Of a DNA stretch of 64,000 nt, positions 24,196 to 56,269 are shown piece after piece. The DNA lies in the NCBI RefSeq assembly GCF_988242995.1, contig NZ_OZ547043.1; one strand, written 5' to 3'. The translations under genes and the position numbers were made by a program. The notes under the pieces are model-generated. The model did no database searches and had not been told where the DNA came from. It worked only from the letters and a program-made list of their open reading frames with translations. Each line of letters opens with the position of its first letter. The first letter of the stretch is position 1.

Positions 24196-24493
24196 TAATA
24201 CTTATATGTTCGATGATTTTAAGCACCGATACCATCCGGTCTTTTACCAAATAATGAAAAAGAATCCCTCCCTGGAAGATAATTGTAAAAAACAACAGAA
24301 TAAGAATTAATCTTAGGATAAATATTTATTTACCATGGCCTTTTGAACGCTGAAAAGTAGCGCTCTGCAAAGTAAATCCCGCTATAGTTATGCTATGCAT
24401 TTGTCTTTAATGATATCTCGTCATTATATTAACAGGCTGAAATTATCATTAATGCACATTTCAATATTAGCAGGGATACCTGAGGAGTTTAAA

Positions 24494-25546
24494 GTGAACA
24501 TATATATCGGGTGGCTTTTCAAATTAATCCCTTTAATTATGGGCTTGATTTGTATCGCGTTAGGTGGCTTTGTGCTGGAAAGTTCAGGGCAAAGCGAATA
24601 TTTCGTCGCGGGTCATGTGCTCATTTCTCTGGCAGCCATATGCCTGGCATTATTCACTACCGCATTTATTATCATTTCGCAGCTCACGCGCGGCGTTAAT
24701 ACGTTTTACAATACATTGTTCCCCATTATTGGCTATGCGGGGTCAATTATCACCATGATCTGGGGTTGGGCACTGTTAGCAGGCAATGATGTGATGGCAG
24801 ACGAGTTTGTTGCCGGCCATGTTATTTTTGGCGTTGGTATGATTGCCGCCTGTGTATCGACAGTGGCAGCGTCATCCGGTCACTTTCTGCTCATTCCCAA
24901 AAACGCAGCAGGGAGCAAGAGCGATGGAACACCGGTACAGGCTTATTCGTCATTAATCGGTAATTGCCTCATTGCCGTTCCCGTTTTACTCACCCTGCTC
25001 GGTTTCATTTGGTCTATTACGCTGTTACGTAGTGCCGACATAACTCCGCATTATGTCGCCGGTCACGTATTGCTTGGGTTAACCGCAATCTGTGCCTGTC
25101 TAATTGGCCTTGTTGCCACAATCGTCCATCAAACACGTAATACGTTCTCATCCAAAGAGCACTGGCTGTGGTGTTATTGGGTTATTATTCTCGGCTCAAT
25201 CACGGTGCTGCAGGGCATATACGTGTTAGTCAGCTCCGATGCAAGCGCCCGACTGGCTCCCGGCATTATCCTCATTTGCCTCGGAATGATCTGTTACAGC
25301 ATATTCTCAAAAGTCTGGCTACTGGCACTGGTCTGGAGACGTACCTGTTCGTTAGCCAACAGAATACCGATGATTCCCGTCTTCACCTGCCTGTTTTGCC
25401 TTTTCCTGGCATCGTTTCTTGCGGAAATGGCGCAGACCGATATGGGATATTTTATTCCTTCGCGGGTTCTGGTCGGTTTGGGAGCGGTATGCTTTACGTT
25501 GTTCTCAATCGTTTCAATATTAGAAGCGGGTTCTGCTAAAAAATAA
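24494..25546 (+). CDS. yhiM: inner-membrane protein YhiM (350 aa), GTG start
   Basis: Start GTG 24494 preceded by GAGGAG; polytopic membrane protein with repeated [FY]VAGHV motif; synteny. Confidence 0.8.
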   Translation: MNIYIGWLFKLIPLIMGLICIALGGFVLESSGQSEYFVAGHVLISLAAICLALFTTAFIIISQLTRGVNTFYNTLFPIIGYAGSIITMIWGWALLAGNDVMADEFVAGHVIFGVGMIAACVSTVAASSGHFLLIPKNAAGSKSDGTPVQAYSSLIGNCLIAVPVLLTLLGFIWSITLLRSADITPHYVAGHVLLGLTAICACLIGLVATIVHQTRNTFSSKEHWLWCYWVIILGSITVLQGIYVLVSSDASARLAPGIILICLGMICYSIFSKVWLLALVWRRTCSLANRIPMIPVFTCLFCLFLASFLAEMAQTDMGYFIPSRVLVGLGAVCFTLFSIVSILEAGSAKK

Positions 25547-25562
25547 TTGCAACGTACCGGAT

Positions 25563-25600
25563 AAAACCAGCGTTGATTATTTGCGTAACGCTGGTTTTTC
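25563..25600 (+). terminator. Rho-independent terminator after yhiM
   Basis: Stem ccagcgtt...aacgctgg followed by TTTTT. Confidence 0.7.
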
Positions 25601-25860
25601 TTAGGTATCATGAAATAACGCAGCATTAATGCATAGTGGTTAAGTATAAATAAACAGCAAAGTTGCTGATTTTTTCAACCTGTTCATATTTTATAAAGAT
25701 CTGGCCACTGGGGGAGTTTTAATCACCTTTCCTTCCACCTTATATTAAGCCTGGAGGGTTTCAGTTCACAGGCTCATTAGAAAATAATCACAAGATAACC
25801 ACTATCAAAATTAGCTCATTTTTAATGCGACCCTAATAATTTTCATCTTTAGATAATAGG

Positions 25861-55696: not shown

Positions 55697-56269
55697 ATGT
55701 TATATATAGATAAGGCAACAATTTTGAAGTTTGATCTGGAGATGCTGAAAAAGCATCGCAGAGCAATCCAGTTTATTGCCGTGTTGCTGTTTATCGTCGG
55801 GTTGCTGTGTATCAGTTTCCCGTTCGTCTCTGGCGATATTTTAAGCACAGTAGTGGGTGCATTATTAATCTGCTCGGGCATTGCGCTTATTGTCGGGTTA
55901 TTCAGCAACCGCAGTCATAATTTCTGGCCGGTATTATCCGGTTTCCTCGTCGCAGTCGCCTATTTATTGATCGGCTATTTCTTCATCCGCGCACCGGAGC
56001 TGGGCATTTTTGCCATTGCGGCATTTATTGCCGGTTTGTTCTGTGTTGCAGGGGTTATTCGCCTGATGAGTTGGTATCGTCAGCGTTCAATGAAAGGCAG
56101 CTGGCTACAGCTCGTTATTGGTGTGCTGGATATCGTCATTGCATGGATATTCCTTGGTGCAACGCCGATGGTGTCTGTAACTTTGGTTTCCACACTGGTG
56201 GGTATTGAACTGATATTTAGCGCCGCCAGCCTGTTCAGCTTCGCCAGTTTGTTCGTTAAGCAGCAATAA
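55697..56269 (+). CDS. hdeD: acid-resistance membrane protein HdeD
   Basis: 190 aa polytopic membrane protein divergent from hdeAB. Confidence 0.9.
   Translation: MLYIDKATILKFDLEMLKKHRRAIQFIAVLLFIVGLLCISFPFVSGDILSTVVGALLICSGIALIVGLFSNRSHNFWPVLSGFLVAVAYLLIGYFFIRAPELGIFAIAAFIAGLFCVAGVIRLMSWYRQRSMKGSWLQLVIGVLDIVIAWIFLGATPMVSVTLVSTLVGIELIFSAASLFSFASLFVKQQ

Follow-up and report, generated by a model that had tools for sequence, protein, structure and literature searches.

Proteins of the SLAC1/TehA type are built of ten transmembrane (TM) helices that form five helical hairpins, organised as a double layer with quasi-five-fold symmetry and connected by short external loops; their odd-numbered helices form a pore that is gated by a phenylalanine (PMC11260165, PMC3172217). 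In this study we analysed the gene yhiM at positions 24494..25546 (plus strand) of a 64,000-nucleotide stretch of contig NZ_OZ547043.1 (RefSeq assembly GCF_988242995.1), the whole of which is called the window in the following. Sequence comparison establishes its product, the inner-membrane protein YhiM of the family DUF2776, as a five-fold tandem repeat of a TM helical hairpin of 66-70 amino acids (aa), with the copies in register and conserved across the family.

De novo designed proteins are also among the closest known systems, namely the single-chain parallel alpha-helical barrels (sc-CC-5/6/7/8) and circular tandem-repeat toroids (8qai, 8qah, 8qag, 6xr1, 8u1a, DHR81). These designs are soluble and made of idealised repeats with 5-9 inner helices, whereas YhiM is a natural membrane protein of five units, in which the set H/H/H/I/R breaks the symmetry. 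Homopentameric channels of 2-TM subunits, for example CorA, place five hairpins and ten TM helices around one axis, but YhiM is a single chain. By analogy, the ancestor of a protein with five fused hairpins can plausibly be pictured as a homopentameric channel of this kind. A further likeness exists to HdeD, an acid-stress-regulated inner-membrane protein with short repeated TM units (Pfam DUF308). A relation of HdeD/DUF308 to the YhiM unit profile was rejected at an hhalign probability of 0.3%. The hdeD gene itself is located at 55697..56269 of the window, together with neighbouring acid-fitness-island genes, at a distance of about 30 kb downstream from yhiM.

Five hairpin repeats in YhiM

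The yhiM open reading frame (ORF) begins with GTG and comprises 350 codons and a stop codon, which gives a protein of 350 aa on translation. It matches the Pfam model DUF2776 (PF10951) with 528.2 bits (gathering cutoff 26.1, E 1.4e-158) over model positions 1-347 of 348, and a Pfam scan found the same model in 27 of 27 diverse homologs tested; no NCBIfam model matched YhiM. Hydropathy and the AlphaFold2 model display ten long helices with short connecting loops, and the protein was split for testing into five two-helix units (aa 1-68, 69-136, 147-216, 217-284 and 285-350). The coding sequence, its units and the motif copies within them are as follows.

24494..25546, plus strand: yhiM coding sequence, DUF2776 family inner-membrane protein with 10 TM helices (translation, Pfam, RefSeq annotation, AlphaFold2)
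24494..24697, plus strand: repeat unit 1, aa 1-68, with outer helix TM1 (3-29), turn and inner helix TM2 (34-64)
24596..24655, plus strand: motif copy 1, EYFVAGHVLISLAAICLALF, aa 35-54, with G40, H41 and C50
24698..24901, plus strand: repeat unit 2, aa 69-136, with TM3 (70-95), turn and TM4 (102-130)
24800..24859, plus strand: motif copy 2, DEFVAGHVIFGVGMIAACVS, aa 103-122, with G108, H109 and C120
24902..24931, plus strand: middle (aa 137-146) of the sole long cytoplasmic loop (aa 131-152), between units 2 and 3 (AlphaFold2 secondary structure; insertion-tolerant in homologs)
24932..25141, plus strand: repeat unit 3, aa 147-216, with TM5 (153-179), turn and TM6 (184-214)
25046..25105, plus strand: motif copy 3, PHYVAGHVLLGLTAICACLI, aa 185-204, with G190, H191 and C200
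25142..25345, plus strand: repeat unit 4, aa 217-284, overlooked in the initial annotation, with TM7 (220-246), turn and TM8 (251-280)
25247..25306, plus strand: motif copy 4, newly detected, ARLAPGIILICLGMICYSIF, core RLAPGII, aa 252-271, with G257, I258 and C267
25346..25543, plus strand: repeat unit 5, aa 285-350, with TM9 (293-312), turn and TM10 (317-347)
25445..25504, plus strand: motif copy 5, GYFIPSRVLVGLGAVCFTLF, aa 318-337, with S323 (Ala in most homologs), R324 and C333

Smith-Waterman comparison of unit against unit gave a best score of 83 (z 11.7 versus plain shuffles), and units 1 and 4 were aligned with nearly the same score (81, z 11.3). Against shuffles that preserve the hydrophobic/polar pattern, z values of up to 11.4 were obtained between units. 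The weakest pairs of single sequences are units 2 and 4 and units 2 and 5, with z 1.3-1.9. A 5-mer present three times, as in YhiM, occurred in 14 of 20,000 shuffles. At the level of family sub-profiles, which were taken for each unit from an alignment of 114 sequences, hhalign placed all ten pairs in register over 41-61 columns with probabilities of 80-98.9%, those of unit 4 with the other units being 93-97%; reversed or column-shuffled control profiles reached at most 4.4%. When the unit-1 profile was compared to the full-length profile with no preset boundaries on the query side, five non-overlapping copies were found at aa 1-68, 69-130, 161-218, 223-272 and 293-343 with probabilities of 95-99.9%, and a sixth alignment had probability 0. 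The five hairpins of E. coli TehA served as a natural control: in the same Smith-Waterman test they gave z values of at most 2.1, compared to 5-11 for the YhiM hairpins. Thus, the TehA hairpins are without remaining sequence similarity, whereas the YhiM hairpins are pairwise 11-29% identical in the five-unit alignment and carry a common motif.

The initial annotation, which was made by reading the sequence, had claimed a four-fold repeat. Its ORF coordinates and the positions of its four motif strings (aa 35-54, 103-122, 185-204 and 318-337) are correct, and the repetition that it noticed is highly significant in both the Smith-Waterman and the profile-profile comparison; the number of copies, however, is five, the unit at aa 217-284 having been missed. 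The internally duplicated helical-hairpin architecture, which had been suggested there, holds and is extended to five hairpins, that is, to 10 TM helices. One detail has to be revised: rather than preceding a Cys-containing helix, the motif constitutes the first two turns of this very helix, in which the Cys stands at +10 relative to the Gly, or at +12 in the case of unit 2.

Each unit of about 68 aa consists of an outer helix, a periplasmic turn of 4-6 residues, usually with an acidic residue, and an inner helix. The outer helices share a one-sided conserved face with P13/P77/P163/P295, G24/G91/G241 and a Trp immediately preceding that Gly. The inner helices follow the pattern F/Y(-3) V(-2) A/P(-1) G(0) H/C/R(+1) V(+2) L(+3) x G/S(+5) L(+6) G/A/T(+7) A/M(+8) I(+9) C(+10), and the consensus of the five-unit alignment reads IP...G...L...FVAGHVL.GLGAIC..L. 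The hairpin was found neither outside DUF2776 nor as a free-standing 2-TM family, as a unit profile of 133 sequences matched DUF2776 fragments only; single units compared to Pfam gave nothing but weak matches at chance level (holins, DUF4079). In one homolog (P0183, 445 aa), a Pro/Ala/Arg-rich insert of about 100 residues is present in the cytoplasmic loop between units 2 and 3, at the place equivalent to 24884-24949. This loop, the only long one between units in E. coli YhiM, is suggested by the sequences to be the one permissive site in the ring.

No repeat was detected in yhiM at the DNA level, where only two short matches at the frequency expected by chance were present, and the three VAGHV cores are encoded by differing codons; the duplication is therefore ancient and has been maintained at the protein level. 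One direct match of 13 out of 15 nucleotides (nt) connects 24599-24613 in motif copy 1 (YFVAG) with 25453-25467 in motif copy 5 (IPSRV), in different reading frames. An origin of the unit-5 motif by a compensated frameshift, with IPSRV as a shifted VAGH, was considered and rejected: chance alone predicts about 0.5 matches of this quality in 1053 nt, the two motif copies already align well in frame, and the divergence is too old for DNA similarity to have survived.

Arrangement of the ten helices

AlphaFold2, run on the alignment of 114 sequences, returned ten long helices with a predicted local distance difference test score (pLDDT) of 93.7 and a predicted template modelling score (pTM) of 0.93; a solved structure exists for no relative of YhiM. 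For the five hairpins, closure into a pseudo-five-fold alpha-helical barrel of two layers is predicted, and Foldseek ranks single-chain parallel coiled-coil barrels first among its matches. The predicted protein has the closed ring of parallel central helices and the outer return helices by which the barrel class is defined, and it resembles SLAC1/TehA in its ten TM helices, five tandem hairpins and two-layer quasi-five-fold barrel. Nine Lys/Arg residues are located in cytoplasmic loops and none in periplasmic loops, in agreement with the published prediction of 10 TM helices and two cytoplasmic termini (PMC6604978). This establishes the N-in/C-in topology and places the motif at the periplasmic end.

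The helices that carry the motif differ from their partners in several respects. The even helices are conserved at 2.59-2.82 bits versus 2.03-2.69 bits for the odd ones, and their helical conservation moment is 0.09-0.15, i.e. almost without periodicity, versus 0.22-0.38. Small residues are more common in the even than in the odd helices. Nearly all Trp residues are found in the odd helices, whose variable third or face is hydrophobic, which fits helices with one packing face and one lipid face. Couplings between positions were derived by mean-field direct coupling analysis from 183 aligned sequences (effective number of sequences, Neff, ~79) and pooled over the five equivalent unit pairs, an analysis of low power. 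The pooled couplings include antiparallel hairpin ladders (46 of 76 strong pairs depth-consistent, p=1.4e-6), ladders between inner helix k and outer helix k+1 (36 of 65, p=2.5e-4) and parallel coupling between adjacent even helices (17 of 27, p=9.5e-5); that between adjacent odd helices is weak (15 of 34, p=0.067). From conservation and small-residue content, the distribution of Trp and the pooled covariation together, we infer that the even helices form a central parallel five-helix ring and the odd helices a lipid-facing outer ring. In SLAC1/TehA (PF03595, TDT) it is the odd helices that line the pore, and the even ones appear to be central in YhiM; furthermore, no counterpart of the single gating Phe was identified in YhiM.

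Plotted on a helical wheel, the pooled couplings of the inner helix point to the own outer helix at ~16 degrees, to the next inner helix at ~114 and to the previous one at ~265, which would set the barrel axis near 190 degrees, close to +2/+5. The positions facing the axis would then be Val at +2, Gly at +5, Ile at +9, Ala/Cys/Ser/Thr at +12, as well as +16 (including the conserved K273) and +23 (Q63, Q213). Gly(0) couples with the equivalent of Gly24. The residue at +1 couples with the equivalents of position 23 in two outer helices, its own and the following one (L23, W90, W173, Q240 and L305; position 240 is Trp and position 305 is Phe in most homologs). As far as this low-powered covariation allows, the His side chain is oriented to the outer helices at the seam between hairpins, ~90 degrees off the barrel axis, four of the Cys (+10) lie at interfaces between inner helices, and C120 (+12) alone is on the axis stripe.

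Part of this picture is already known. The designed barrels of Albanese et al. 2024 matched the AlphaFold model of YhiM, described as 'based on five central helices' and as the most striking natural match, and the supplementary tables of that study list P44741 and P50537 beside P37630 (PMC11288890). Its main text mentions neither TehA nor SLAC1 nor a sequence repeat. Likewise, the two papers on the function of YhiM give 10 predicted TM helices and mention neither repeat nor motif. P44741 and P50537 are presumably a TehA homolog and Mae1. In summary, the identity of the yhiM gene is known, and the public AlphaFold model has already led to a published remark on five central helices; the five-fold sequence repeat, the register of Gly, His and Cys, the link to the SLAC1/TehA fold and the apparent swap of helix roles were not found in the searchable literature.

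Conserved residues and mode of action

DUF2776 is a small family: in a set of 1.8 billion proteins it has 257 representatives at 50% identity, and its occurrence is dispersed across Proteobacteria, Actinobacteria and further phyla. Conservation was counted over 127 full-length homologs. Gly(0) (G40, G108, G190 and G257) is kept in 119-125 of them, each of the cysteines C50, C120, C200, C267 and C333 in 121-126 (95-99%), and all five Cys jointly in 113. The initial annotation had emphasised conserved His residues, and over the family as a whole H41, H109 and H191 are indeed present in 110, 120 and 112 homologs, respectively (87-94%). Among the 14 members below 45% identity, however, H41 is retained in three and H191 in nine, and units 4 and 5 never have His at +1: unit 4 has Cys (Ile in E. 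coli) and unit 5 has Arg. The commonest set at the five equivalent positions is H-H-H-C-R (76 of 127), and the E. coli type H-H-H-I-R is a minority (9 of 127). Judged from the alignment, the truly conserved elements of the family are Gly and the five Cys rather than His. At codon 258 (25265-25267), the His-equivalent of unit 4, Cys is encoded in 83 of the 127 homologs (65%) and Ile in E. coli and close relatives, while an aromatic residue (Phe, Tyr or Trp) is found in 14 of 14 members below 45% identity, the group that mostly lacks H41. Codon 258 and H41, two 'equivalent' positions of different units, thus change together at the level of clades.

The phenotypes of YhiM in published work are pleiotropic, bear on its function only indirectly and concern survival in acid, growth when temperature is high and osmolarity low, export of gamma-aminobutyric acid (GABA) and copper/Cpx signalling. 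A yhiM mutant exported ~50% less GABA at pH 5, and overexpression raised the export (PMC6604978). In the deletion mutant, which contains less copper (Cu) and resists it, the CpxAR system is on, and the Cu effect was ascribed to copA being induced; without YhiM, cpxP is activated by a route that does not involve NlpE, and CpxAR is required for the Cu resistance (PMC11005409). A paper linking yhiM functionally with tehA was not found in the literature searched.

We consider it moderately probable that YhiM is a five-hairpin barrel in which the motif is a packing device and which acts as a TehA-like channel or facilitator. The motif would be mainly a repeated clasp at the periplasmic end of the ring and not an axial ring of ligands. 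At Gly(0) the inner helix could pack closely against its own outer helix, at the conserved Gly of the latter, while Phe/Tyr(-3) and Ala/Pro(-1) would touch the neighbouring inner helix. His/Cys/Arg(+1) would be placed in the seam where one hairpin meets the next and would abut the conserved Trp/Phe/Leu of the outer helices. The residues turned to the axis would be Val(+2), Gly(+5), Ile(+9) and, at +12, a small polar one. Combined with the published phenotypes, this arrangement points to a narrow central path, largely hydrophobic in its periplasmic half, and a channel or facilitator of this type would account for both the contribution to GABA export and the effect on the copper load. The three His in the seams could be reached from the periplasm and would be at most modulatory sensors of pH or Cu and not a relay for conduction.

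A further-reaching version of this proposal is put forward here only tentatively. DUF2776 may be a second, sequence-unrelated lineage of the quasi-five-fold hairpin barrel, otherwise known in nature only from SLAC1/TehA, with the opposite helix of the hairpin in the centre and the repeat still legible; it would form a channel with a hydrophobic gate, in which His-aromatic seams accessible from the periplasm respond to acid or copper and cause the ring to open. If this is true, DUF2776 would be a snapshot of the origin of such a barrel by fusion of five copies of a 2-TM hairpin, and the GABA, acid, copper and Cpx phenotypes would be tied together.

The initial annotation had suggested a different role for the conserved His and Cys, namely a metal or proton relay. 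In such a reading they would line a central pathway, in the manner of an M2-type His ring or a CPC-type Cu site, and act as a binding and translocation site for Cu or as a proton relay. Such an axial relay would explain the acid and copper phenotypes, and both residue types are well conserved over the family by the counts given above; moreover, Cu is classically bound by His and Cys, less of it accumulates in the deletion mutant, the motif helices probably form the central ring, and C120 of TM4 is on the axis-facing stripe proposed here. The covariation, although of low power, nevertheless suggests that His(+1) points to the outer helices at the seam and four of the five Cys to the interfaces between inner helices, off the axis, and within one helix His and Cys are separated by 9 residues and look to opposite sides. 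Much of the divergent clade lacks H41 and H191, and His never occurs in units 4 and 5. With the Cu phenotype attributed to copA/Cpx induction and a YhiM-dependent GABA export that shows no significant pH dependence, the relay is somewhat disfavoured and, in our view, unlikely.

It is similarly doubtful that the core of the barrel is plugged and that YhiM contains no conduit, so that its role is structural or in signalling, for instance with its loss perturbing the envelope and switching on CpxAR, and the motif serves for folding and packing only. The NlpE-independent activation of cpxP upon loss of YhiM and the need of CpxAR for Cu resistance would fit such a role, as would the pleiotropy of the phenotypes and the conserved Val/Ile in all five units at +2 and +9, which appear to face the axis. 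On the other hand, overexpression increases GABA export, the closest natural fold is a channel family that itself has a hydrophobic, Phe-gated pore, and conserved polar residues (K273, S128, Q63, Q213 and E344) are grouped in the inner helices, within their cytoplasmic half.

Membership of YhiM, as a very diverged branch, in the TehA/SLAC1 (TDT) superfamily, in which case the odd-helix, Phe-gated anion pore and the trimer would transfer to it, has to be regarded as clearly improbable. The homology was tested and rejected, since hhalign gave 0.1-0.2% for the family profile against TehA alone or against a profile of its close homologs. That profile is shallow, all listed homologs being at least 81% identical, which leaves room for a very remote homology. 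Of 27 diverse DUF2776 proteins scanned, none matched PF03595, not even with E allowed up to 10. Furthermore, the roles of inner and outer helices appear to be swapped, and sequence similarity between hairpins, absent in TehA, is pronounced in YhiM.

Finally, membrane helices have a biased composition in common and two unit pairs are weak as single sequences, but a repeat that is a mere artefact of hydrophobic composition has practically no chance and is already refuted by the unit comparisons, the pattern-preserving shuffles, the low scores of control profiles and TehA hairpins and the profile search with unpreset boundaries.

The yhiM locus and the meaning of the repeat

In a RefSeq E. coli locus that is 99.5% identical, the gene is labelled yhiM and is flanked by two DUF4049 genes and by yhiN/pitA; this gene identity is unchanged by the finding of the repeat. 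The signals at both ends of the coding sequence are the following.

24481..24496, plus strand: Shine-Dalgarno-like GAGGAG (24481-24486) and GTG start codon (24494-24496), read from the sequence
25563..25602, plus strand: 12-bp perfect inverted repeat (25563-25574 / 25587-25598) followed by a T tract, after the yhiM stop codon, read from the sequence

In PMC6604978 the transcription start of yhiM is placed 22 nt upstream of its GTG. A further ATG in the same frame, at 24452, lengthens the ORF by 14 codons and is used in automated gene calls (P0001, 364 aa, 4700 member sequences). Since this ATG is outside the published transcript, and in view of GAGGAG and GTG at the positions given, the 14-codon extension is argued to be untranslated. 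A 90%-identical allele (P0002, 2301 member sequences) starts with MGFKM-NIYIG, which resembles the 'MXXXM motif' described in a 2024 mBio paper for YhiM of uropathogenic E. coli (UPEC). At the corresponding site (24482-24496) the allele of the window reads E-E-F-K-(GTG) and is thus of the non-UPEC type. The two alleles differ at 34 residues, none of which is a repeat Gly, His or Cys.

The inverted repeat with T tract at 25563-25602 is a probable terminator of yhiM, judging by its sequence and its place in the intergenic region of the convergent genes yhiM and yhiN. A consensus terminator scan did not flag it, as the loop measures 12 nt. Inverted repeats in the yhiM-yhiN intergenic region are mentioned in the 2017 YhiM paper, and an insertion of Tn7/pco/sil between yhiM and yhiN has been reported (PMC8417528). 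Upstream of yhiM, two adjacent large ORFs occupy 20734-24195 (minus strand), of which the ORF 22522..24195 carries DUF6860 and DUF4049; at the matching relative position of a related RefSeq locus two DUF4049 paralogs are annotated. No conserved gene neighbour of yhiM homologs was found in nine loci, three of them on contigs too short to inform. From the literature, an arrangement gadC-yhiM-gadB is known in C. perfringens (PMC6604978). In a megablast search with 24300-25700, yhiM was matched in 4255 of 5426 complete E. coli genomes, with most matches at 95-99% identity and not above 99%. By this count, yhiM may be absent or strongly diverged in about one fifth of E. coli strains.

YhiM is a stress protein labelled by a domain of unknown function (DUF), and reading it as five hairpins gives it a concrete and testable architecture. 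The five-fold reading yields sets of equivalent positions, namely five Gly, five Cys, the H/H/H/(C or I)/R set, the axis stripe at +2/+5/+9/+12 and the Trp-Gly of the outer helices, which can be mutated unit by unit. A barrel of this kind predicts a channel-like and not a carrier-like mode of action. As a natural protein with a readable trace of a five-fold hairpin duplication, YhiM can also serve research on how helical barrels evolve and on their design.

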